The notes beneath the pieces are model-generated. The model saw only the letters and a list, made by a program, of their open reading frames with translations. It did no database searches and had not been told where the DNA came from. Positions 6,163 to 64,000 of a DNA stretch of 64,000 bases are shown here, piece after piece. The stretch's first letter is position 1, and each line of letters begins with the position of its first letter. Both the position numbers and the translations under genes were made by a program. This stretch comes from Eledone cirrhosa (lineage: Eukaryota). The stretch is taken from contig OZ024741.1 in NCBI GenBank assembly GCA_964016885.1, positions 180,916,001-180,980,000 of the forward strand. Reading direction: 5' to 3'.

Positions 6163-6521
6163 TTGATTTCCATGTGTCTAACACACGTGGGCATGATCAC
6201 AAAGTCAGAAAACAGCACAGTGCCCCCATGACTTTTGGAAACATTTTTTCACGCTCAGAGTTGCTGAAGCATGTAACAAACTACCTGCATCGGTTGTTAG
6301 CTGTCGAGACACTGCATCCTTTGAAACCTCCCATGCTTCCCGAGATTCGCCAACACTACACCTAATGCCCCCCCCCCCCATACACATACACAGATGTATA
6401 TCATGACTCATACACTATTCACTTCCCTGACATTTGTATATTATTCTATGTACTATAAATGTACCTTTGACGAGTTGTAGTGCACCTGAGCACTTTACAC
6501 AATAATTTCATTATCATTATT
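6163..6521 (+). mobile_element. Dispersed 3' fragment of the same CR1-type LINE
   Basis: Closely similar to ~59397-59750 (GATTTCCATGTGTCTAACACACGTGGGCAT ... CACAATAATTTCATTAT). Confidence 0.85.
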
Positions 6522-31779: not shown

Positions 31780-33720
31780 CCCACATACCCATCTTCACCC
31801 TCATCAGCTCTCAAACGAGCAGTCAGGTCTAAATCTCCAGGATAACCGGAGACCAAGCAGGACTAGTGGTAGCTCATCACACCAAAGTGAAACTTGTAGC
31901 TCTGGCTTTGATTGCAGCTTTTAGTTGGCGGTAGAAACATTCTATCATCCCATTTGCCTGTGGGCAATAGCTTGAGTCGCATGTCTAGAGATGCCAAGGA
32001 GTTTGTGGAGCTCTGATCAAAGTGTTGATGTCAATTGTAGACCTCTATTTGATGTTATATCTTCTCGAACGCCAATGCGAGATATCCAATGATGAAAAAG
32101 TGATGAGGTACATATTTCAGAGTGAGCTTTTTGAAGGGGGATAGCTTCTGGCCATCTTGTAAATTTATCAATGATTGTAAAAATGAGTGTCATTCCATTA
32201 CTGGATGGTAGAGGAAAAACAAGATCCACATGTAGACTTTGAAACCTTGCTGTGTATTTTTGACGTTCTCTTAATGGGGTTCTGGTATGTATGAGTATTT
32301 TTGAAGATTGCCAAGCGTGGTATTTTTTGCACCACTTTCTAATGTCTATCCGCATTCCTGACTACACAAAATGTTTGTAGATTGCACGAGAAAGGTTGTG
32401 AAATAGTCAAATATCTTGCTCGTCCACAGAGTAGGAGTTATTAGTCTTGGAGAGACAGTAGATACGTCACACATTAAAGAGATATTTCATAAGTTGTTTC
32501 TTTGGTTGAATTATAGTGTTATTCACATAAAAATCCCATTTCCTCTATCTAATCCTTGGCTAGCTGTTCAAAGTTGATTGAAGGCAGAGGCTGTTGAGAT
32601 TGTTGAAATTCACATTAGCTTCTTAATTTATCAATCAATCTCCCGTATGTATGGATCCTACACGTGAAAGTGTGTCTGCTACAATGTTTAATTTACCCAT
32701 AACATGTTGAATGTAATTTGTGAATTCAGCAATGAATGAAAAATGTCTTGTTTGTCATGGAGACTTTCACTTTTGCTTTGCAAACTTGAGTAGAGCGAAC
32801 GCTTGCATGAGAAAAGTTGCGAAAACAGCAACAAATTTTGCGTTTCCATACATTAGGGATTATTGGTCTTGGAGAGCCAGTAGATAGTGCCGCAATAGCT
32901 GTGTTTGAAGCATCAACAGTAAGACTAGTTGGTAAGTCTGGAAAATGATGATGTAGAAGTATAGCGCTGCTCAGTAAATCCTTGACTGTATCAAACGCCT
33001 CTTGGCAATCTGACGATCATTCTATTTTCTGTCCCTCACCATGAGCTTGTTGATGTAGTAAAGCAAGTATTTCTGCAACACTGGGCAGAAATCTATAATA
33101 ATAATTGACCATTCCCAAGAAACGTTGTAGTGCAGCGCGAGAATCTGGTGTGGGATATTCACGAAGTGAAATAACACGCATAGGAAGAGGTTGAATGCTT
33201 TGATCTGTGATGAGATGAATTAAGAATTCGAGGTGTTTTACTTCGAAAACACATTTGTTGATAAAAGAATGAAACATTCTTTGACATAATCAAAATGTTC
33301 ACTTTTTGAATGCGATGCAACTAAAACATCATCAATATACACAAACGAGAAAGGAATATCACGAGGAATACTATCCATGAGTTTTTGGAAAGTTTGTGCA
33401 GCACTTTTCAAACCAAAAGGCATCCGTAAAACTTCCCACAATCCAAATAGAGTAGTGACTGCTGTTTTAGGTATTGATTCCGTTGCCATTGGTATTTTGT
33501 TGTATCCTCCGATTAAATCAACTTTTGAGGAAATAGTACCTCCAGCCAGGTGACTATCTAAGCCTTGAATATATGGTAATGGGTAGTGGTCATCAGTTGA
33601 GTTGGCATTGATGAAAGGAAAATTTCCATAGGGCCCCCAGCTGTCATTTTATTTAGGGACCATGTGCAGTGGTGAAGACCAAGCTGCGTTTGAGCGTCTT
33701 ACTATTCCCATTCCATCTTA
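31780..33720 (-). mobile_element. Decayed Ty3/Gypsy pol (RT, RNase H, integrase)
   Basis: KTAVTTLFGLWEVLRMPFGLKSAAQTFQ, YIDD, LQRFLGMVNYY, VDAS and HVDLVFPLPSSNG..IDKFTRWPEAIPL in RT-RH-INT order, with stops and deletions. Confidence 0.93.
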
Positions 33721-36320: not shown

Positions 36321-36403
36321 ACTCCAACTAATTAGTTTCTGAAAGGGAATAAACATGGTTTCTGAATGGAAGACATGGAGAATGCCTTTCGTCATCAGGA
36401 AGT
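36321..36403 (-). ncRNA. Type I hammerhead-like motif upstream of a Penelope-like ORF
   Basis: Minus strand reads ACTTC-CTGATGA-CGAAAGG...CCTTTCA-GAAA-CTAATTAG-TT-GGAGT, with palindrome ACTAATTAGT. Confidence 0.68.
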
Positions 36404-36726
36404 CAATTCTCAGCTAAGTTCCCATGCGATGCGTGGACACAGGGAACTTATACAAAAATAATTAGGTGGATGGAAAAAAGCAAGTGTGGACTAAATTCCA
36501 AGATATTGAAAAAAATCACTGCCTACTTGGTCGGTGGCAAATTCAAAAGAATCAATCACGTGACATCGAGGTTAATCAGTGAGGAGTGGGTGTTAAGAAG
36601 ACAGTAGCCGAACTATTACTATGAACTATAGTAGCAGTTTTTGCAAATTTTTGCTTAACAAAATAATTTGGAGATAATTATAAAGAATTAGTATATCTAC
36701 CAACATATATATACAGATGCATACCT

Positions 36727-38467
36727 GGTGACGTTGCCAACCTATTTATGGTATGGTGGGAAAGGAGACTTAAAGATCTCCTTGATGAGATCTCCATAGA
36801 CCTCATCATGTACTCTCGTTACGTAGACGATATCAATATAGAACATCCCCACAAGAGAGCACTAACAAGTTTGATTTAGAACGTAGCACAATGGACAGCA
36901 TCCAGAAGATAGCTAATTCCATACACCAGAGTATAACTGTAACTATCGACTACCCTTCCAAACACCCTAACAATAGAGACTACCTGTATTAGACACGGAA
37001 CTCTGGATTAATACTATAGACGAGAGAGCCCAAATTCTCCACTCACACTATGCTAAACTCATGGCCTCCAAATACCTGATACTCAAAAACTCAGCAATGT
37101 CCAGTAGTGCTAAGTTTAATATTCTGATCGCAGACTTGGTACGAGTGATGAAGAACGTGTCCCGCATGTGCGATCCAACAGAAATGGAAAGACACATCCA
37201 ACACTTCATCAACTGCATGCAGTTCTCTGGCTACACCAAAGAGACAGAATCAGAGTATACGAAGGAGCCACGGAGAAGTATAAGACCCTCATAGAACTGG
37301 ACATGAAATAAATTTTCCCATTATACAGGAGCAAATCATGGAATAGCTTAGATAGGGCTAGACATAAGATAGGGAAAGCCACCTCATCGTACGACAACCA
37401 GAGATACCAGAGTGTCATGTTTGTGGACGCTACCCCTGGTGGGAAATTAGCTAACTAGTGTAGAAAGGCCCTGAGAAAGACCCACTTAAAGATTAAGGTG
37501 GTAGAAAAGCCAGGAACCACCATAAAATCCCTGATCAGCAAAACCTACCCTTTTAAGAAAACCCACTGTACTAATAGGAAATGTATCATATGTAAGGTAA
37601 ACCCCCGGATAAACTGTAAAACTAGAAACGTAGTCTATAGCATAAGATGTACAGAGGGTACTTGCAGAAACATGACAACAACATACATAGGCTAGACAGC
37701 TCGTAGCATAGGTGAAAGTATAGACCAACACTGGGGGGAACTAAAAGGACGAAAAAACGGTTCAGTACTATACGAACATGCCAGACAACAACACGACGGT
37801 AACATAGACAACATAGAAATTAGAATAATATCTAAACATAGAAATGACCCAGCAGATAGGCAAATCAGAGAGGCCAGTGAAATAGAATTTAGAAGGCCAA
37901 GGCTAAACAGAAAAAATGAATGGAATAACAAAAACACCCAAACAAACAACACTGACCTAACAGAAGTATAAATAAATAAAAAAATACATACACAAGCGCA
38001 ATAACAACAAACACATATAAACACACACTAGTAAAGATAGAATACATTAACCAATACACAGTCACCCAATCACGAACACACATCAAACAAAACACTATAC
38101 ACACACGCAAACGCATGCGCAAAGAAAAAAACAACAAAAAAAACAACAAATAAATAAATATATAAACAGACTAAATAAAGATGGCGTAGAAAATACAATG
38201 CAACGGGAGGAAACAATAGCACCACTGACGATGTTGCAGATGTGCAACGAAAGAACTTTGATAAACTATATATATGTGTTTGTGTCTATATTATATCTGT
38301 ATTTTTGACCGTTGGTCAGGCAATGGCAACATTGAGGACCGAATGAATTAAATTAACCGATATAAAAGACACAGAAGCGAAAAGCGAAAACCAACCAAAC
38401 AGTGTGTGTTCTGTTATTAATTCTGGCAATATTACACAAATATGACCCTCCCGAAGTATAACAATAA
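36727..38467 (+). mobile_element. Decayed Penelope-like retroelement (RT C-terminal half + GIY-YIG + 3' region)
   Basis: VANLFMVWWE, YSRYVDDI, LPVLDTELW, CTNRKCIIC and NVVYSIRC...TYIG; multiple stops and frameshifts. Confidence 0.88.
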
Positions 38468-38605: not shown

Positions 38606-41600
38606 ATATTCACATATATATCGCTATTTCAGAGCATTTATTCCAATTTCTAATTTCTGCCGGACCGGCAACCGCTCTTTCAAACCAGTTCCTGTACACA
38701 GCTAAGTATTCTATAAGTCTCTAGCTGTGTCATTCTCGATAAAAGCACTGGATATGTAGTCCTGATGAATTCTAACAAGAATGAAACGCGTAGATTACTT
38801 CCCTTGCTTTTATCGAGAATCTAATTGTAATACGTGACGTATTCTATTCTATAGCGATTAGGTCTTCAAAATGTTTATTATAAACATACAGAATATTTTC
38901 GAATATTCTATGTCTATATTCACATATATATCGCTATTTCAGAGCATTTATCCCAATTTCTAATTTCTGCCGGACCGGCAACCGCTCTTTCAAACCAGTT
39001 CCTGTACACAGCTAAGTATTCTATAAGTCTCTAGCTGTGTCATTCTCGATAAAAGCACTGGATATGTAGTCCTGATGAATTCTAACAAGAATGAAACGCG
39101 TAGATTACTTCCCTTGCTTTTATCGAGAATCTAATTGTAATACGTGACGTATTCTATTCTATAGCGATTAGGTCTTCAAAATGTTTATTATAAACATACA
39201 GAATATTTTCGAATATTCTATGTCTATATTCACATATATATCGCTATTTCAGAGCATTTATTCCAATTTCTAATTTCTGCCGGACCGGCAACCGCTCTTT
39301 CAAACCAGTTCCTGTACACAGCTAAGTATTCTATAAGTCTCTAGCTGTGTCATTCTCGATAAAAGCACTGGATATGTAGTCCTGATGAATTCTAACAAGA
39401 ATGAAACGCGTAGATTACTTCCCTTGCTTTTATCGAGAATCTAATTGTAATACGTGACGTATTCTATTCTATAGCGATTAGGTCTTCAAAATGTTTATTA
39501 TAAACATACAGAATATTTTCGAATATTCTATGTCTATATTCACATATATATCGCTATTTCAGAGCATTTATTCCAATTTCTAATTTCTGCCGGACCGGCA
39601 ACCGCTCTTTCAAACCAGTTCCTGTACACAGCTAAGTATTCTATAAGTCTCTAGCTGTGTCATTCTCGATAAAAGCACTGGATATGTAGTCCTGATGAAT
39701 TCTAACAAGAATGAAACGCGTAGATTACTTCCCTTGCTTTTATCGAGAATCTAATTGTAATACGTGACGTATTCTATTCTATAGCGATTAGGTCTTCAAA
39801 ATGTTTATTATAAACATACAGAATATTTTCGAATATTCTATGTCTATATTCACATATATATCGCTATTTCAGAGCATTTATTCCAATTTCTAATTTCTGC
39901 CGGACCGGCAACCGCTCTTTCAAACCAGTTCCTGTACACAGCTAAGTATTCTATAAGTCTCTAGCTGTGTCATTCTCGATAAAAGCACTGGATATGTAGT
40001 CCTGATGAATTCTAACAAGAATGAAACGCGTAGATTACTTCCCTTGCTTTTATCGAGAATCTAATTGTAATACGTGACGTATTCTATTCTATAGCGATTA
40101 GGTCTTCAAAATGTTTGAATATTCTATGTCTATATTCACATATATATCGCTATTTCAGAGCATTTATTCCAATTTCTAATTTCTGCCGGACCGGCAACCG
40201 CTCTTTCAAACCAGTTCCTGTACACAGCTAAGTATTCTATAAGTCTCTAGCTGTGTCATTCTCGATAAAAGCACTGGATATGTAGTCCTGATGAATTCTA
40301 ACAAGAATGAAACGCGTAGATTACTTCCCTTGCTTTTATCGAGAATCTAATTGTAATACGTGACGTATTCTATTCTATAGCGATTAGGTCTTCAAAATGT
40401 TTATTATAAACATACAGAATATTTTCGAATATTCTATGTCTATATTCACATATATATCGCTATTTCAGAGCATTTATTCCAATTTCTAATTTCTGCCGGA
40501 CCGGCAACCGCTCTTTCAAACCAGTTCCTGTACACAGCTAAGTATTCTATAAGTCTCTAGCTGTGTCATTCTCGATAAAAGCACTGGATATGTAGTCCTG
40601 ATGAATTCTAACAAGAATGAAACGCGTAGATTACTTCCCTTGCTTTTATCGAGAATCTAATTGTAATACGTGACGTATTCTATTCTATAGCGATTAGGTC
40701 TTCAAAATGTTTATTATAAACATACAGAATATTTTCGAATATTCTATGTCTATATTCACATATATATCGCTATTTCAGAGCATTTATTCCAATTTCTAAT
40801 TTCTGCCGGACCGGCAACCGCTCTTTCAAACCAGTTCCTGTACACAGCTAAGTATTCTATAAGTCTCTAGCTGTGTCATTCTCGATAAAAGCACTGGATA
40901 TGTAGTCCTGATGAATTCTAACAAGAATGAAACGCGTAGATTACTTCCCTTGCTTTTATCGAGAATCTAATTGTAATACGTGACGTATTCTATTCTATAG
41001 CGATTAGGTCTTCAAAATGTTTATTATAAACATACAGAATATTTTCGAATATTCTATGTCTATATTCACATATATATCGCTATTTCAGAGCATTTATTCC
41101 AATTTCTAATTTCTGCCGGACCGGCAACCGCTCTTTCAAACCAGTTCCTGTACACAGCTAAGTATTCTATAAGTCTCTAGCTGTGTCATTCTCGATAAAA
41201 GCACTGGATATGTAGTCCTGATGAATTCTAACAAGAATGAAACGCGTAGATTACTTCCCTTGCTTTTATCGAGAATCTAATTGTAATACGTGACGTATTC
41301 TATTCTATAGCGATTAGGTCTTCAAAATGTTTATTATAAACATACAGAATATTTTCGAATATTCTATGTCTATATTCACATATATATCGCTATTTCAGAG
41401 CATTTATTCCAATTTCTAATTTCTGCCGGACCGGCAACCGCTCTTTCAAACCAGTTCCTGTACACAGCTAAGTATTCTATAAGTCTCTAGCTGTGTCATT
41501 CTCGATAAAAGCACTGGATATGTAGTCCTGATGAATTCTAACAAGAATGAAACGCGTAGATTACTTCCCTTGCTTTTATCGAGAATCTAATTGTAATACG

Positions 41601-41722
41601 TGACGTATTCTATTCTATAGCGATTAGGTCTTCAAAATGTTTATTATAAACATACAGAATATTTTCGAATATTCTATGTCTATATTCACATATATATCGC
41701 TATTTCAGAGCATTTATTCCAA

Positions 41723-41723
<1 letters not shown>
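38606..41723 (+). repeat. Tandem array of 310-bp hammerhead-containing units (10 copies); retrozyme/pLTR-like
   Basis: CTGATGA cores at 38762, 39072, 39382, 39692, 40002, 40288, 40598, 40908, 41218 and 41528. One unit has a 24-bp deletion near 40116. Confidence 0.96.
38756..38798 (+). ncRNA. Minimal type I hammerhead ribozyme (first of 10 identical copies)
   Basis: GTAGTC-CTGATGA-ATTCT(AACA)AGAAT-GAAA-CGCG-TA-GATTAC. Stem I is GTAGTC/GATTAC, stem II is 5 bp, stem III is the palindrome ACGCGT, and the GUA cleavage site follows 38792. Confidence 0.92.
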
Positions 41724-43964: not shown

Positions 43965-45630
43965 CAAATTTTGAATACGAAACCAGCAACCTTTACGGAC
44001 TTCCGAAGATCCACAAATGTAAAATAATCAACGATGCCTGTAAACAATCCACCTCAGCCTGCGTGAACACACAATACCCCACAGACCTTAAATTAAGAGC
44101 AATCGTAGCGGGCCCACAATGTGAAACACACAGATTGAGCAACTTTATAGACATACTACTGAAACCAATACTGAAACACATACCAAGCCTTGTAAGAGAC
44201 GATCTGCACCTCTTAAACCACCTCCCCAAACATGTCAACAACGACACTATTATTGTGTCTTTCGATGTAGTGAATCTCTACACAACGATCCCACACCAAT
44301 ACGGAATAGAAGCAATATGATTCTGGCTAGAGAAATATCCCAATGAGATACCTGACAGAATAGAAAAAAGCTTCATCACCGAGGGATTAAAATTCATCCT
44401 ACAGAACAACTTTTTTGATTTCGATGGCAATACTTACAAGCAAATATCGGGGACTGCGATGGGCACAAAAGCCGCTCCAACTTATGCCAACTTAGTCATG
44501 GCATACTTAGAAGTCCAGATATATGAACAGTCCAAATCAAAATACGGATTGAACTTCCACAAATATTTATCAGAGAATTGGAAACGCTACTTGGATGATT
44601 GCCTCATTCTTTGGTCCCACACACTCGACCAACTGAAGGATTTCAAAAACTTAATAAACGGCATCAATAAGCACATCCAATTCACAATGGAATACAGCCA
44701 AGATCAACTCCCATTTCTGGACATCTTAATCACAAAAAAAGACACAAATATCGAAACTGACATACACTACAAACCAACAGATTCCAAACAATATCTGCTA
44801 TTCACCTCCAACCATCCAAAGCACACGAAGACGAACATTCCTTTTAACCTAGCAAGAAGAATTTGCACAATTGTCTCCAATTATGAAACGCGAAATAAAA
44901 GACTTCAAGAATTAAAGGAAATTCTACTTGAGAGAGAGTACCCACTATTACTAATAAATAATGGAATAGAAAGGGCTAAAGCAATAAGCATTGATGAATT
45001 ACGGAAACAGAAACAAATTCAAGGTACGTCCAATATTCTACCATATATCTCAACACACAACCCAAGAAATGCGGAAGCTTACAACACTATTCACAATAAC
45101 ATCCCACTACTAAAACAAAACCCAAGAATGAAAAAAGCCCTTGAAACACACAAAATAATCAAAAGCAAAAGACAACCAAAATCACTGAAAACATTACTCA
45201 CCAATGCCAAATTACCTACCCACAACCAAGTATCAAAAAATGTGGTCGCTCTAATTGTGGAACCTGCACTCACCTCATTGAAGGCAACACGTATACATTT
45301 AAATCAGGACAAAATTTTACTGTAAAAAATCACTTCACTTGCTCATCAAAAATCTAATTTATGCCATTAAATGTAAAGGATGCAATGAAGATTATATAGG
45401 ACAAACTAAACTCACACTCAGAAACAGAATGACAGTTCATCGCCAACAATTACGAGATCCAACCACGAGACAGATACCACTAAGTGCACATCTAGACATT
45501 TGCGCAAGTAATAAGACACCCAAATTCCAAGTCTTCCCATTTTACCTTTGCGCTAACAATACAACAGAACAAATGCGAATAAATAGGAAAATATGTTTAT
45601 TCAAAAATATAGACCAACATTAAATAAGGT
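43965..45630 (+). mobile_element. Penelope-like retroelement (RT + C-terminal GIY-YIG), 5'-truncated and disrupted
   Basis: [43 protein letters not shown], Cys linker CGRSNCGTC, and LIYAIKCKGCNEDYIGQT. Stop at 44318 and frameshifts. Confidence 0.95.
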
Positions 45631-55351: not shown

Positions 55352-55853
55352 ATTAAGTTAAAAGTGTACATCCACATATGTATACTGAAATACTAGTATG
55401 CATATAAATACACACACGTATACATATGTACATGGACACTTTACTCTGGAGAATAGAGGAAAGGTGTTTCCTCGAAAACCAGTATGACTCTAAAAACCGG
55501 TTTGTCTGTGTGTTTACATACGGACTAGCTGAACACTCACAGTAAAGTGTCCAGTGAAAAGCTCGGTACATGTACATATGTATACGTGTGTGTATTTATA
55601 TGCATACTAGTATTTCAGTATACATATGTGGATGTACACTTTTTACTTAATTGTTTAAGCGTCAGTCATACAAAAGTGAGTTACAAACGAAACGAAATTT
55701 AATTTCGTTTCGTTATTTGTTTTTATCGTTTCCGCTGATCCGGTACGTACTCACGCTCTATGCAAATTAGTCTGCCCACTACTAATTTTCATAGAAAAAG
55801 CATATAACGATATGTGCTTTTAGGATTCTCTAGAGAGGCCGGAGGATGGGTAT

Positions 55854-55896
55854 ATATTGCTGATGAGATGTAATAACATCGAAACTAGTCCAATAT
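55854..55896 (+). ncRNA. Minimal type I hammerhead ribozyme
   Basis: ATATTG-CTGATGA-GATGT(AATA)ACATC-GAAA-CTAG-TC-CAATAT, with palindromic ACTAGT stem III and a GUC site. Confidence 0.92.
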
Positions 55897-56318
55897 TCCT
55901 GTCTGGCTCTCTGGAGAATAGAGGAAAGGTGTTTCCTCGAAAACCAGTATGACTCTAAAAACCGGTTTGTCTGTGTGTTTACATACGGACTAGCTGAACA
56001 CTCACAGTAAAGTGTCCAGTGAAAAGCTCGGTACATGTACATATGTATACGTGTGTGTATTTATATGCATACTAGTATTTCAGTATACATATGTGGATGT
56101 ACACTTTTAACTTAATTGTTTAAGCGTCAGTCATACAAAAGTGAGTTACAAACGAAACGAAATTTAATTTCGTTTCGTTATTTGTTTTTATCGTTTCCGC
56201 TGATCCGGTACGTACTCACGCTCTATGCAAATTAGTCTGCCCACTACTAATTTTCATAGAAAAAGCATATAACGATATGTGCTTTTAGGATTCTCTAGAG
56301 AGGCCGGAGGATGGGTAT

Positions 56319-56361
56319 ATATTGCTGATGAGATGTAATAACATCGAAACTAGTCCAATAT
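56319..56361 (+). ncRNA. Minimal type I hammerhead ribozyme, second copy
   Basis: Same sequence as 55854-55896, +465 bp. Confidence 0.92.
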
Positions 56362-56672
56362 TCCTGTCTGGCTCTCTGGAGAATAGAGGAAAGGTGTTTC
56401 CTCGAAAACCAGTATGACTCTAAAAACCGGTTTGTCTGTGTGTTTACATACGGACTAGCTGAACACTCATAGTAAAGTGTCCAGTGAAAAGCTCGGTACA
56501 TGTACATATGTATACGTGTGTGTATTTATATGCATACTAGTATTTCAGTATACATATGTGGATGTACACTTTTAACTTAATTGTTTAAGCGTCAGTCATA
56601 CAAAAGTGAGTTACAAACGAAACGAAATTTAATTTCGTTTCGTTATTTGTTTTTATATATATATATATATAT

Positions 56673-56872
56673 NNNNNNNNNNNNNNNNNNNNNNNNNNNN
56701 NNNNNNNNNNNNNNNNNNNNNNNNNNNNNNNNNNNNNNNNNNNNNNNNNNNNNNNNNNNNNNNNNNNNNNNNNNNNNNNNNNNNNNNNNNNNNNNNNNNN
56801 NNNNNNNNNNNNNNNNNNNNNNNNNNNNNNNNNNNNNNNNNNNNNNNNNNNNNNNNNNNNNNNNNNNNNNNN
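56673..56872. other. Assembly gap (200 N)
   Basis: Run of N. Confidence 1.
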
Positions 56873-57064
56873 CATCCTTTAAGGCCTCCATGCTTCCCGA
56901 GATTCGCCAACACTACACCTAATGTCGCCCCCTCCCTGCCTCATACACACATATATATCATGACTCATACACTATTCACTTCCCTGACATTTGTGTTTTA
57001 TTCTATGTACTATACATGCACCTTTGACGAGTTGTAGTGCACCTGAGCACTTTACACAATAATT

Positions 57065-57098
<34 letters not shown>

Positions 57099-57543
57099 AA
57101 TTAACCGTGAGAGACACTAAAGACACACACACAAATCTCAATTTGCGTTATTCATCGATCTGCTGGAAACAACGTTGATATTTGTCTCAACTAACAGCCT
57201 CTCTCCTGGAAGAAGGAAAAAACGGTGATAAATACTTTTCTGCAAGTTTGTGTTAGTAGTTAATGCTAACACCAAATGTTGAATTATTTCCCTTGATTAA
57301 TACAAGATAGTAGATTTGAAGGCGTAAGTAAAGATAGTTTAGTTGTTAAATTGATAAAGTTTGTATAAAGAAGAATAACTTTGAAAGTAAAGAGTAGTGA
57401 ATAAGTGTATAAATAAAATAATTTGCAAGTTGTATTGTTTTTTGTATTGTGGAATTAAATTTTCAGTAGTTGCTGATGGTATAAAGTCAGTAGATCTTTT
57501 GTAAGTATAATGTTATATGAAGAAAGTGATTATGGTGTCTAGC

Positions 57544-57706
57544 ATACTTACCTGGCACAGGGGTTAACCATGATCCGCTAGGTGGTTCTCCCAGAGTGAG
57601 GCTCTTCCATTGCACTGCGGTTGGGTTGACCTTTGCGATCGCCCCAAATGTGGGCGACTCGGGTGCGCTATTTCTAAGTGTGGGGTCTGCGTTCGCGCTC
57701 ACCCCG
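57544..57706 (+). ncRNA. U1: U1 snRNA gene (variant), copy 1
   Basis: Starts ATACTTACCTGG (5' splice-site recognition end). Loop II is ATTGCAC (U1A site), loop III is CAAATGT, and SL IV is GGGGTCTGCGTTCGCGCTCACCCC. 163 nt long, and the helices pair (GCAC/GTGC, AACCAT/GTGGTT, TCGCCC/GGGCGA). Confidence 0.96.
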
Positions 57707-57710
57707 TAAA

Positions 57711-57727
57711 ATAATCAAAAAGACAGA
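57711..57727 (+). terminator. Putative snRNA 3' box (also at the same offset after copies 2 and 3)
   Basis: AAAGACAGA 12 nt after the U1 3' end matches the AAARNNAGA half of the metazoan 3'-box consensus; the GTTT half is absent. Confidence 0.5.
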
Positions 57728-58915
57728 CTTTTTACCATTATTAAATTATAATTATCTTTCTCTATTCTTTCACACAATCAACTTTACACATTCTCTCATA
57801 CAACCTAACTTTTCAGATTTATTTCTTTTACAAACTCCCTCATACAACCTTTTCCTATTCATGCAATCCTCACCTAACTCTTCTCTGCACTCTCAACTCT
57901 TGCCCACGCCGGCATATCATATACTAGCACACCATTTCACCGGCTCTTGCCTACCTCTTCCAACACACATGCATCGTCCCTTCTATTTTCAATTAACAAC
58001 AACTACCTTCATTCTATTTCAATTCAGCCGCAATCACTCTTACCTTTCACACTTCTCTTCCAACATACACCCAACCGTCTATCGTGTATCTGAGTAATTA
58101 ACCTCATAGAAACAACACTTAAATTTACCTCCTCTCACACATAACCTACATTATATGGAGAAAGATATCTGCCATTTTCACTCTTAGTATATCTTTCATC
58201 ATACCACTGGCCAGCTAAATCATAACTTCCATCTTCCGACGGAGAAGACGCTCCTATCAGAAGAAATCATCAGGCTAGATCCAGAAACGATCTTATCTTA
58301 TTTGTCGTCTAACCTTCGGTCTCACGCCAGTTGGATTTACCCGTATTATCTCTCTAGTCATTCTTTTCTTATACATTCTAAACACACCTTCCTACTACCA
58401 GAGTGGTGATCTTCCGATTCAGAAAATTCGCTGCTCTACCTGTACCCACTCCCTCATCTCCAAGCTACACATCCAATCGACCAAGCTTATTCCAAACGCT
58501 TGTAAATCTACATTTACAAATCAATACAACAAACAATTTACTTCAGCGAACACACACAGACATATATTACTAGCAAATCACTTATATATGGAACTTGTGA
58601 GCATGTGATATCTCTAAAAGGTCGCATCTTGAACTCAATCAAACAATCTAGCCTATACTAATATGGAAAGAGGACGTGCAATGATGATATGGATTTTTAG
58701 GCTTTTCTTAAGCACAGAGATTGTTTTAGTGTCACTTGCATTTAAAATTTAATTATCTTTATTATCCACTTCTCAGTAGTGAGAACTTGATAAATATTTA
58801 TTACAACAGTTAAACCAACTTCATTAAAGTATTATGTTGCTGTAGGTGTGTGTATAACATGCAACTAGATAAACTCTGATATAGTAGATAGATTCTTGTG
58901 AAATATCTATATACA

Positions 58916-59737
58916 AGTGCACCACCATGCATTTTGGGAGTAAAAACCCAGCGTCCACATACTCCCTCCACAGCACTAATATCAAGAAGTCTTCTTGTGA
59001 ACGTGACCTGGACATTGCGGTCAGCAGCGATTTGCGTTGGACGAAGCACGTCTCTAAAATTGTCAAGAGGGCCGAGGGTGTCTTAACATCACTCAGTAAG
59101 ACCTTTGTCAGCCGCTCTCCTGCTATCTATTTAAGGCTGTACATGGCTATGGTGCGGCCACACTTAGAATTTGCATCACCAGTCTGGGACCCCTAGCTTG
59201 CTCAGAACATTGACCGCCTGGAAACTGTTCAGAGACGTGCAACCAAGCGAATACCCTCCATCAGGCATCTACCATACTCTGAGCGCCTTGCTTCCCTGGG
59301 CATGGATACATTGAAGCTCCGACGCCTGGCAACTGACTTGGTAAACACCGACAAAATTGTTAACCATCTTGCCAACAACAACCCTGAGTAGCTTTTTGAT
59401 TTCCATGTGTCTAACACACGTGGGCATGCCCACAAAGTCTGAAAACAGTACAGTTCCCATGACTTTCGGAAACATTTTTTCACGCTCAGAGTTGCTGAAG
59501 CATGTAAAAAACTACCTGCATCGGTTGTTAGCTGTCGAGACACTGCATCCTTTAAGGCCTCCATGCTTCCCGAGATTCGCCAACACTACACCTAATGTCG
59601 CCCCCTCCCTGCCTCATACACACATATATATCATGACTCATACACTATTCACTTCCCTGACATTTGTGTTTTATTCTATGTACTATACATGCACCTTTGA
59701 CGAGTTGTAGTGCACCTGAGCACTTTACACAATAATT

Positions 59738-59768
<31 letters not shown>
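58916..59768 (+). mobile_element. 5'-truncated CR1/L2-group LINE 3' end inside the U1 unit
   Basis: KCTTMHFG...ERDLDIAVSSDLRW...LYMAMVRPHLEFASPVWDP*LAQNIDRLETVQRRATK is the CR1-type ORF2 C-terminus. It has in-frame stops and ends in an (ATT)n tail. Confidence 0.88.
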
Positions 59769-59771
<3 letters not shown>

Positions 59772-60217
59772 AATTAACCGTGAGAGACACTAAAGACACA
59801 CACACAAATCTCAATTTGCGTTATTCATCGATCTGCTGGAAACAACGTTGATATTTGTCTCAACTAACAGCCTCTCTCCTGGAAGAAGGAAAAAAACGGT
59901 GATAAATACTTTTCTGCAAGTTTGTGTTAGTAGTTAATGCTAACACCAAATGTTGAATTATTTCCCTTGATTAATACAAGATAGTAGATTTGAAGGCGTA
60001 AGTAAAGATAGTTTAGTTGTTAAATTGATAAAGTTTGTATAAAGAAGAATAACTTTGAAAGTAAAGAGTAGTGAATAAGTGTATAAATAAAATAATTTGC
60101 AAGTTGTATTGTTTTTTGTATTGTGGAATTAAATTTTCAGTAGTTGCTGATGGTATAAAGTCAGTAGATCTTTTGTAAGTATAATGTTATATGAAGAAAG
60201 TGATTATGGTGTCTAGC

Positions 60218-60380
60218 ATACTTACCTGGCACAGGGGTTAACCATGATCCGCTAGGTGGTTCTCCCAGAGTGAGGCTCTTCCATTGCACTGCGGTTGGGT
60301 TGACCTTTGCGATCGCCCCAAATGTGGGCGACTCGGGTGCGCTATTTCTAAGTGTGGGGTCTGCGTTCGCGCTCACCCCG
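60218..60380 (+). ncRNA. U1: U1 snRNA gene (variant), copy 2
   Basis: Same sequence as copy 1, 2674 bp downstream. Confidence 0.96.
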
Positions 60381-61589
60381 TAAAATAATCAAAAAGACAG
60401 ACTTTTTACCATTATTAAATTATAATTATCTTTCTCTATTCTTTCACACAATCAACTTTACACATTCTCTCATACAACCTAACTTTTCAGATTTATTTCT
60501 TTTACAAACTCCCTCATACAACCTTTTCCTATTCATGCAATCCTCACCTAACTCTTCTCTGCACTCTCAACTCTTGCCCACGCCGGCATATCATACACTA
60601 GCACACCATTTCACCGGCTCTTGCCTACCTCTTCCAACACACATGCATCGTCCCTTCTATTTTCAATTAACAACAACTACCTTCATTCTATTTCAATTCA
60701 GCCGCAATCACTCTTACCTTTCACACTTCTCTTCCAACATACACCCAACCGTCTATCGTGTATCTGAGTAATTAACCTCATAGAAACAACACTTAAATTT
60801 ACCTCCTCTCACACATAACCTACATTATATGGAGAAAGATATCTGCCATTTTCACTCTTAGTATATCTTTCATCATACCACTGGCCAGCTAAATCATAAC
60901 TTCCATCTTCCGACGGAGAAGACGCTCCTATCAGAAGAAATCATCAGGCTAGATCCAGAAACGATCTTATCTTATTTGTCGTCTAACCTTCGGTCTCACG
61001 CCAGTTGGATTTACCCGTATTATCTCTCTAGTCATTCTTTTCTTATACATTCTAAACACACCTTCCTACTACCAGAGTGGTGATCTTCCGATTCAGAAAA
61101 TTCGCTGCTCTACCTGTACCCACTCCCTCATCTCCAAGCTACACATCCAATCGACCAAGCTTATTCCAAACGCTTGTAAATCTACATTTACAAATCAATA
61201 CAACAAACAATTTACTTCAGCGAACACACACAGACATATATTACTAGCAAATCACTTATATATGGAACTTGTGAGCATGTGATATCTCTAAAAGGTCGCA
61301 TCTTGAACTCAATCAAACAATCTAGCCTATACTAATATGGAAAGAGGACGTGCAATGATGATATGGATTTTTAGGCTTTTCTTAAGCACAGAGATTGTTT
61401 TAGTGTCACTTGCATTTAAAATTTAATTATCTTTATTATCCACTTCTCAGTAGTGAGAACTTGATAAATATTTATTACAACAGTTAAACCAACTTCATTA
61501 AAGTATTATGTTGCTGTAGGTGTGTGTATAACATGCAACTAGATAAACTCTGATATAGTAGATAGATTCTTGTGAAATATCTATATACA

Positions 61590-62411
61590 AGTGCACCACC
61601 ATGCATTTTGGGAGTAAAAACCCAGCGTCCACATACTCCCTCCACAGCACTAATATCAAGAAGTCTTCTTGTGAACGTGACCTGGACATTGCGGTCAGCA
61701 GCGATTTGCGTTGGACGAAGCACGTCTCTAAAATTGTCAAGAGGGCCGAGGGTGTCTTAACATCACTCAGTAAGACCTTTGTCAGCCGCTCTCCTGCTAT
61801 CTATTTAAGGCTGTACATGGCTATGGTGCGGCCACACTTAGAATTTGCATCACCAGTCTGGGACCCCTAGCTTGCTCAGAACATTGACCGCCTGGAAACT
61901 GTTCAGAGACGTGCAACCAAGCGAATACCCTCCATCAGGCATCTACCATACTCTGAGCGCCTTGCTTCCCTGGGCATGGATACATTGAAGCTCCGACGCC
62001 TGGCAACTGACTTGGTAAACACCGACAAAATTGTTAACCATCTTGCCAACAACAACCCTGAGTAGCTTTTTGATTTCCATGTGTCTAACACACGTGGGCA
62101 TGCCCACAAAGTCTGAAAACAGTACAGTTCCCATGACTTTCGGAAACATTTTTTCACGCTCAGAGTTGCTGAAGCATGTAAAAAACTACCTGCATCGGTT
62201 GTTAGCTGTCGAGACACTGCATCCTTTAAGGCCTCCATGCTTCCCGAGATTCGCCAACACTACACCTAATGTCGCCCCCTCCCTGCCTCATACACACATA
62301 TATATCATGACTCATACACTATTCACTTCCCTGACATTTGTGTTTTATTCTATGTACTATACATGCACCTTTGACGAGTTGTAGTGCACCTGAGCACTTT
62401 ACACAATAATT

Positions 62412-62442
<31 letters not shown>
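61590..62442 (+). mobile_element. CR1/L2-group LINE 3' end, second unit copy
   Basis: Same sequence as 58916-59768. The tail portion is also present at 56873-57095. Confidence 0.88.
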
Positions 62443-62445
<3 letters not shown>

Positions 62446-62891
62446 AATTAACCGTGAGAGACACTAAAGACACACACACAAATCTCAATTTGCGTTATTC
62501 ATCGATCTGCTGGAAACAACGTTGATATTTGTCTCAACTAACAGCCTCTCTCCTGGAAGAAGGAAAAAAACGGTGATAAATACTTTTCTGCAAGTTTGTG
62601 TTAGTAGTTAATGCTAACACCAAATGTTGAATTATTTCCCTTGATTAATACAAGATAGTAGATTTGAAGGCGTAAGTAAAGATAGTTTAGTTGTTAAATT
62701 GATAAAGTTTGTATAAAGAAGAATAACTTTGAAAGTAAAGAGTAGTGAATAAGTGTATAAATAAAATAATTTGCAAGTTGTATTGTTTTTTGTATTGTGG
62801 AATTAAATTTTCAGTAGTTGCTGATGGTATAAAGTCAGTAGATCTTTTGTAAGTATAATGTTATATGAAGAAAGTGATTATGGTGTCTAGC

Positions 62892-63054
62892 ATACTTACC
62901 TGGCACAGGGGTTAACCATGATCCGCTAGGTGGTTCTCCCAGAGTGAGGCTCTTCCATTGCACTGCGGTTGGGTTGACCTTTGCGATCGCCCCAAATGTG
63001 GGCGACTCGGGTGCGCTATTTCTAAGTGTGGGGTCTGCGTTCGCGCTCACCCCG
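62892..63054 (+). ncRNA. U1: U1 snRNA gene (variant), copy 3
   Basis: Same sequence as copy 1, a further 2674 bp downstream. Confidence 0.96.
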
Positions 63055-64000
63055 TAAAATAATCAAAAAGACAGACTTTTTACCATTATTAAATTATAAT
63101 TATCTTTCTCTATTCTTTCACACAATCAACTTTACACATTCTCTCATACAACCTAACTTTTCAGATTTATTTCTTTTACAAACTCCCTCATACAACCTTT
63201 TCCTATTCATGCAATCCTCACCTAACTCTTCTCTGCACTCTCAACTCTTGCCCACGCCGGCATATCATATACTAGCACACCATTTCACCGGCTCTTGCCT
63301 ACCTCTTCCAACACACATGCATCGTCCCTTCTATTTTCAATTAACAACAACTACCTTCATTCTATTTCAATTCAGCCGCAATCACTCTTACCTTTCACAC
63401 TTCTCTTCCAACATACACCCAACCGTCTATCGTGTATCTGAGTAATTAACCTCATAGAAACAACACTTAAATTTACCTCCTCTCACACATAACCTACATT
63501 ATATGGAGAAAGATATCTGCCATTTTCACTCTTAGTATATCTTTCATCATACCACTGGCCAGCTAAATCATAACTTCCATCTTCCGACGGAGAAGACGCT
63601 CCTATCAGAAGAAATCATCAGGCTAGATCCAGAAACGATCTTATCTTATTTGTCGTCTAACCTTCGGTCTCACGCCAGTTGGATTTACCCGTATTATCTC
63701 TCTAGTCATTCTTTTCTTATACATTCTAAACACACCTTCCTACTACCAGAGTGGTGATCTTCCGATTCAGAAAATTCGCTGCTCTACCTGTACCCACTCC
63801 CTCATCTCCAAGCTACACATCCAATCGACCAAGCTTATTCCAAACGCTTGTAAATCTACATTTACAAATCAATACAACAAACAATTTACTTCAGCGAACA
63901 CACACAGACATATATTACTAGCAAATCACTTATATATGGAACTTGTGAGCATGTGATATCTCTAAAAGGTCGCATCTTGAACTCAATCAAACAATCTAGC

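Follow-up and report, generated by a model that had tools for sequence, protein, structure and literature searches.

A tandem array of identical U1 snRNA genes with a rare base in loop I in the octopod Eledone cirrhosa

Introduction

The structure of the human U1 particle sets out how the two protein-binding sites of the RNA are read. According to the available part of its description (PMC4383343), G28 of loop I flips out, A29 pairs with A36, and hydrogen bonds or stacking hold U30 and C31; A32 lies stacked on a phenylalanine of the RRM, the phosphates of C33 and G34 are clamped, and A35 stacks inside the RNA. The U1-70K residues in contact with loop I are Phe106, Tyr112, Lys138, Phe148, Arg172, Asp177, Arg191 and Arg200. 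The pockets of the Sm ring hold A125 to U131, with weak density for A125, and G130 is given as outside the ring; in U4, the last position of the Sm nonamer (133) is an A. Human variant U1 (vU1) RNAs have changes in both the U1-70K and the Sm sites, and in the accessible part of one study (PMC8457000) they jointly account for less than 0.1% of the U1 in 293T cells, with variants altered in the Sm or 70K site loading Sm at less than 10% of the level of canonical U1.

Among the closest described relatives of the gene reported here are those in the supplementary alignment and sequence file of a 2008 publication (PMC2396436), which served as our yardstick; the animal rows were counted by eye, and all statements on these files concern the portions that were available. 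Lottia gigantea has a U1 with loop I reading GAUCAGCAAG and the Sm site reading AAUUUUUUA. Amongst the entries for Aplysia californica, a loop of the form GAUCACGACG is present in 32 of 37 consecutive entries, in most of which the U run of the Sm site is followed immediately by an A, and in a file holding 276 Aplysia entries it occurs 219 times against 29 for the near-canonical GAUCAUUAAG, although these entries are trace reads and such counts track copy number only roughly. Another mollusc hence already has an abundant U1 family that combines an odd loop I with A132. This most frequent Aplysia family alters even A36, the partner of A29 in the human structure.

The sponge Reniera sp. has a U1 paralogue with the loop GAUCCCGAAG (4 of the 15 entries listed, from a total of 23), and also carries A32 paralogues beside it. 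The Reniera row of the alignment is identical to a Lottia entry (02939 and 01349) and is probably a mislabelled trace read, such that the 44 animal rows represent 43 independent ones. No description of a cephalopod or mollusc U1 was found in the literature searched, a collection that lacks most subscription journals, and there was no U1 paper among the listed matches to the variant motifs as text.

Results

The window, a 64-kb stretch of contig OZ024741.1 from Eledone cirrhosa, contains exactly three matches to the Rfam U1 model RF00003 above the gathering score, all of them full-length and scoring 124.8 bits (gathering score 69.5; E = 4e-31 for the first copy). The initial annotation had described a tandem U1 ending at position 57706; the covariance model supports this arrangement and extends the gene by one base. 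The three copies are identical letter for letter, including the variant positions, and lie within a 2.67-kb repeat, the units of which are 99.9% alike, with a single substitution and a single homopolymer base as the differences between them (Table 1). The array is directly preceded by a gap of 200 Ns (56673-56872) and runs past the end of the window, hence three copies is a minimum. Within the 64 kb there is no further U1 copy, including any canonical A32 paralogue, no other Rfam family above its gathering score and no tRNA gene; the U1 spacer has no linked 5S or other snRNA gene, and no Pfam domain was detected in the five spacer frames searched (5 of 14 proteins).

Table 1. Features of the U1 array; positions are those of the 64-kb window
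Feature	Position	Strand	Remarks
Tandem array	56873..64000	+	units 56873-59545 (2673 bp), 59546-62219 (2674 bp) and 62220-64000 (cut by window end)
U1 snRNA gene, copy 1	57544..57707	+	Rfam RF00003, model positions 1-166 of 166
U1 snRNA gene, copy 2	60218..60381	+	Rfam; identical to copy 1
U1 snRNA gene, copy 3	62892..63055	+	Rfam; identical to copy 1
5' splice-site recognition arm	57544..57554	+	first 11 nt match Rfam consensus
Loop I (U1-70K site)	57572..57581	+	GATCCGCTAG, read from sequence
Loop II (U1A site)	57609..57615	+	ATTGCAC, intact; Rfam alignment
Sm-site nonamer	57669..57677	+	TATTTCTAA; human numbering U125, A126, UUU, C130, U131, A132, A133
Stem-loop IV	57682..57705	+	UUCG loop, intact; Rfam alignment, fold
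Possible 3'-box core	57719..57727	+	AAAGACAGA; begins 12 nt after gene; weak match, vertebrate consensus
GC-skew flip	57294..57957	.	centred on gene; C-poor upstream, G-poor downstream; measured on copy 2, same in each unit
Decayed LINE 3' end	58888..59751	+	jockey-like reverse transcriptase, one in each spacer; homology to O. sinensis, O. vulgaris

The gene shares with the Rfam family its full length, the four-way junction, the 5' arm, loop II and stem IV, but departs from it at three of the nine upper-case consensus letters of loop I and, in the Sm site, at two further such letters, A125 and G132. The 5' end and the U1A loop, reported as intact from the sequence, both agree with the Rfam consensus, and a comparison by eye with the human entry likewise upholds the compensatory changes first noted in the helices. 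All four pairs form in helix H (GCAC/GTGC), and TCGCCC/GGGCGA and GGGGT/ACCCC pair in a constrained fold. These changes are not unique to this gene: Aplysia has the same helix H, and Lottia the same stem III stretch CGATCGCCCCAAATGTGGGCGACTCG. When the gene was aligned with two unrelated U1 genes, L102 and L101 (described below), both partners were found to change in 10 of 43 pairs, and 95.8% of cells to pair, with neither value reached in any of 500 shuffles, though only three sequences are involved and it was the window copy that supplied the structure.

Constrained folding gave a structure of -52.2 kcal/mol with the four-way junction, the terminal stem-loop and all helices, whilst without constraints the minimum, at -64.0 kcal/mol, takes another fold. 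The fold that leaves the binding motifs open lies 12.0 kcal/mol above the ensemble, as against 3.7 and 4.8 kcal/mol in the two control U1s (L102 and L101), and the Sm region is predicted to pair over 7 bp with the 5' end of the same RNA (-5.2 kcal/mol, compared with -2.8 and -2.6 in the controls). The predictions are for RNA free of protein, and of the two controls, which also misfold, one is cut at its 3' end.

The altered letters of loop I are present as first read. G28, A29, U30, C31, A36 and G37 are kept, and the letters at positions 33 to 35 all recur in the 44 animal rows available (G33 in eight, C34 in seven and U35 in three). Nine of the ten loop positions carry letters found in these rows; the tenth, C32 (position 57576), is found in none of them. 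Position 32 is an A in all 44 animal rows and in 114 of the 115 alignable eukaryote rows (117 in total), the exception being a G in Eimeria, and no alignable eukaryote row of the available alignment (PMC2396436) has a C. In the accompanying sequence file, a C follows GATC in 22 of 1955 matches over three stem contexts; among the 11 of these listed, three represent a consistent sponge paralogue and the others look like poor or divergent reads. The only clear precedent for C32 in the available supplements is thus the Reniera paralogue, which differs from the E. cirrhosa gene in its canonical Sm site, its changed 5' arm and the canonical letters at its other loop positions. On this comparison, the case for altered binding of U1-70K would come down to the replacement of A32 by C. 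Folding predicts that C32 permits the pairs C31-G38 and C32-G37, which would half-close loop I into a GCUA tetraloop; the predicted probability that the ten-base loop is fully open is 0.51, against 0.91 for L102 and 0.88 for L101. Fisher tests of whether the changes concentrate in loop I and at the Sm site (p between 0.0008 and 0.019) were set aside, as they were post hoc and those positions vary naturally.

The Sm site also has the non-canonical letters initially read, to which a further change can be added: the base preceding the Sm A, A125 in human U1, is a T, which had been missed. A126, U127 to U129 and U131 are kept. Every letter of this site has a precedent amongst animal U1 genes. In the 44 animal rows, U125 is found in one, C130 in 13 and A133 in four; G132, absent here, is present in 41, and the three rows without it are Aplysia, Lottia and the Reniera row that duplicates Lottia. 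The E. cirrhosa gene resembles Lottia further in G33 and C34, in the stretch GUGUGGGG after the Sm site and in stem III, and it has the A132 of the commonest Aplysia family in addition to its helix H. Both molluscs, however, keep A32, A125 and U130, where the octopod gene has C32, U125 and C130. Its combination of Sm letters is seen in none of the 44 rows, and the full combination of its changes in no row of the available alignment. A-to-I editing, which would make A132 and A133 G-like, was rejected as unnecessary, other molluscs being without G132 in their genomes.

A general U1 motif scan of GTDB returned at least 123 loci, among which, of those listed, 118 were dropped as chance matches and five are real U1 genes. 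These five, L102-L105 (contig CBDHDT010000127.1) and L101 (JALVNE010000069.1), are eukaryotic U1 genes inside bacterial bins, that is, contamination. L102-L105 constitute an unrelated array, with four identical tandem copies 2141-2144 bp apart that are 81% identical to the E. cirrhosa gene. Their Sm site (AAUUUAUUA) likewise lacks G132 and G133, and position 35 of their loop (GAUCAUGCAG) is changed, but they retain A32 and A125. The exact variant loop motif of E. cirrhosa has no match in the GTDB genome contigs; as this database is prokaryotic, its absence there says little.

The nonamer AAAGACAGA downstream of the gene is a weak match to a vertebrate 3'-box core, and the motif is present in 15 of 1400 40-nt windows elsewhere, giving a chance of around 1% per window. 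Using a vertebrate PSE consensus, no match within three mismatches was found near any copy. snRNA promoters differ between lineages, hence a vertebrate consensus provides a weak test; a molluscan snRNA promoter consensus was not among the matches listed in our search of the literature. Matches to the octamer are about as frequent as chance would give (7 against an expected 6.8), and no upstream element common to the window gene, L101 and L102 was found.

The flanks have a marked strand asymmetry. On copy 2, the 250 nt upstream (59968-60217) contain 54 G and 10 C, and the 250 nt downstream (60382-60631) contain 13 G and 77 C, a flip reached at none of 4215 positions elsewhere in the window; the G-poor zone downstream of U1 continues for several hundred bases. 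This pattern may reflect a strand bias in mutation that has long been centred on the gene, as could arise from exposure of single-stranded DNA at an active or fragile locus. A hidden inverted duplication was considered as another cause and rejected, the signal being weak (4 of 200 shuffles) and without colinear arms.

The LINE fragment in the spacer is repeated at 61562-62425, with its 3' part also at 56873-57078; its best matches, out of six, are in O. sinensis (78%) and O. vulgaris (76%), and a DNA copy with 92% identity lies at 6163-6521. The variant Sm region (60341-60357) is complementary at 15 of 17 positions to a stretch of this fragment in the same repeat unit (61832-61848), and likewise in unit 1. 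As such a match was obtained in 4 of 1000 shuffles of the Sm segment and 17 of 300 of the whole gene, in a post hoc comparison, it could represent chance or a templated change.

The remainder of the window is AT-rich, rich in microsatellites and full of retroelement debris. A 465-bp tandem repeat (55444-56656; 2.6 copies, 99% alike) contains a hammerhead-like motif in each full unit (55842-55912 and 56307-56377, forward strand), scoring 33.2 bits against Rfam HH9, below the gathering score of 52 (E = 1.6e-5), with a fold z-score of only -1.2. Animal non-LTR retrozymes are described as repeats of 150-450 bp in the available part of PMC7229834, and the 465-bp repeat resembles these. A 310-bp satellite at 38606-41723 has 10 copies that are 98% alike. 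A Penelope-like element on the forward strand (44321-45620) encodes a reverse transcriptase and a GIY-YIG endonuclease; the best named homologues of the former (44321-45322), among the best 120 of 453 matches, belong to Octopus bimaculoides (75%) and Argonauta hians (64%). Taken with the matches of the LINE fragment, these homologues point to an octopod. A second, more decayed Penelope-like element at 36353-37968 on the same strand was judged by eye from its reading frames, two of which gave no match to Pfam. Decayed pieces of an LTR-retrotransposon pol, comprising reverse transcriptase and integrase core, are found at 32020-33648 on the reverse strand.

Discussion

We consider it probable that these genes are a functional, mollusc-type U1 paralogue family of the octopod, recently homogenised by concerted evolution within a 2.67-kb tandem array, in which the binding of U1-70K is perhaps weaker. 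This reading builds on direct observations, namely the sequence, the structure of the array, the intact stems and the precedents in other animals. What we infer beyond them for this RNA, from transcription and Sm loading to 70K binding and splicing activity, follows a working cycle drawn from established U1 biology. RNA polymerase II would transcribe each unit, with cleavage of the RNA before the 3'-box-like element; assembly of the Sm ring could then take place on UAUUUCU, where the pocket bases A126, U127-129 and U131 are kept. Loop II, being intact, would bind U1A, and the 5' arm, likewise intact, would pair with 5' splice sites. U1-70K would still bind loop I via G28, U30, C31 and the pairing of A29 with A36. 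Its binding would probably be weaker, as the A that stacks on the RRM at position 32 has given way to a pyrimidine, and this C32 makes a tetraloop fold available in competition.

The initial annotation had proposed either a lineage-specific variant with altered protein binding or an amplified, partly defective copy. The former is right as regards lineage, but its supposed peculiarities are reduced by the animal precedents for the Sm changes and for loop positions 33 to 35, the loss of G132 being common to both molluscs; that the motifs are simply the standard U1 of the taxon is largely true at the level of the phylum, with C32 staying rare. A defective copy is disfavoured by the intact, covarying stems, 5' end, loop II and stem IV. 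Unlike the scarce human vU1 RNAs, this variant is tandemly amplified. The poor Sm loading of human variants altered in the 70K or Sm site means that other readings have to be kept. U1-70K helps to load the Sm ring on U1 (available parts of PMC12390936 and PMC8457000), and a real loss of 70K binding would hence compound a weak Sm site.

One alternative, which we think unlikely, is that the array encodes a specialised expressed variant, probably embryonic or tissue-restricted, forming a U1-70K-poor particle whilst a canonical A32 paralogue resides elsewhere in the genome. The rarity of C32 and the predicted alternative loop would suit such a role, as would the stage-specific U1 isoforms of fly, mouse, Xenopus and sea urchin (PMC4291461, in part), the existence of human vU1 particles without U1-70K and U1A (PMC5786027, in part) and the several loop I families of Aplysia and of the sponge in the available entries. 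Against this, the window holds only the three C32 copies with no canonical paralogue, and such variants usually retain the Sm motif according to the available part of PMC5786027.

It is improbable that the copies are silent or unstable members of an amplified segment, in effect a pseudogene array. The lack of a recognised promoter element, the mere 10 C in the upstream 250 nt, the predicted misfolding with its 7-bp pairing of the Sm region and 5' end, and the decayed LINE amplified along with U1 all point in that direction, yet the promoter search relied on a vertebrate consensus, and protein-free folding is unreliable for U1, control U1s misfolding too. Nor is there a sign of random decay: the helices, the 5' arm, loop II and the UUCG loop are all preserved, the changes are paired, and the gene has a GC content of 57% with 11 CpG amid AT-rich flanks. 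Very improbable indeed is a U1-headed SINE or an assembly artefact such as a duplicated contig end, which the scaffold gap at the start of the array, the 99.9% likeness of its units and the very high copy numbers of some snRNA-derived loci in giant squid (PMC6962438, in part) might suggest, because the U1 is complete with no attached tail, within the window it occurs in tandem only and its flanks have no second homologue, and the LINE piece begins about 1.2 kb downstream, whilst two sites distinguish the units, all copies share the variant letters and an artefact would alter copy number rather than sequence.

A functional mollusc-type paralogue family, the reading preferred here, would in itself matter little, as tandem U1 arrays and altered-loop U1 paralogues are known, and G-less molluscan Sm sites were already present in the 2008 supplement (PMC2396436, available part). 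The single notable feature of this U1 is C32. A more far-reaching proposal, which we regard as distinctly doubtful, is that octopods have replaced the near-invariant A32 in a major, amplified U1 family, such that either the RRM of U1-70K has co-evolved a new RNA code or the particle is poor in U1-70K. In the latter version, loop I would flip to the C-G-closed GCUA tetraloop and the Sm region could fold back on the 5' arm. If true, and viewed alongside Aplysia and Lottia with their odd loops and their Sm sites lacking the G, it would imply that molluscs have rewired the coupled U1-70K/Sm assembly route.

The human consensus for the Sm site and loop I is the wrong yardstick for molluscs. Octopods belong to a lineage noted for unusual RNA processing; should C32 be their expressed norm, it would offer a natural experiment on the way U1-70K recognises loop I and assists in loading the Sm ring.
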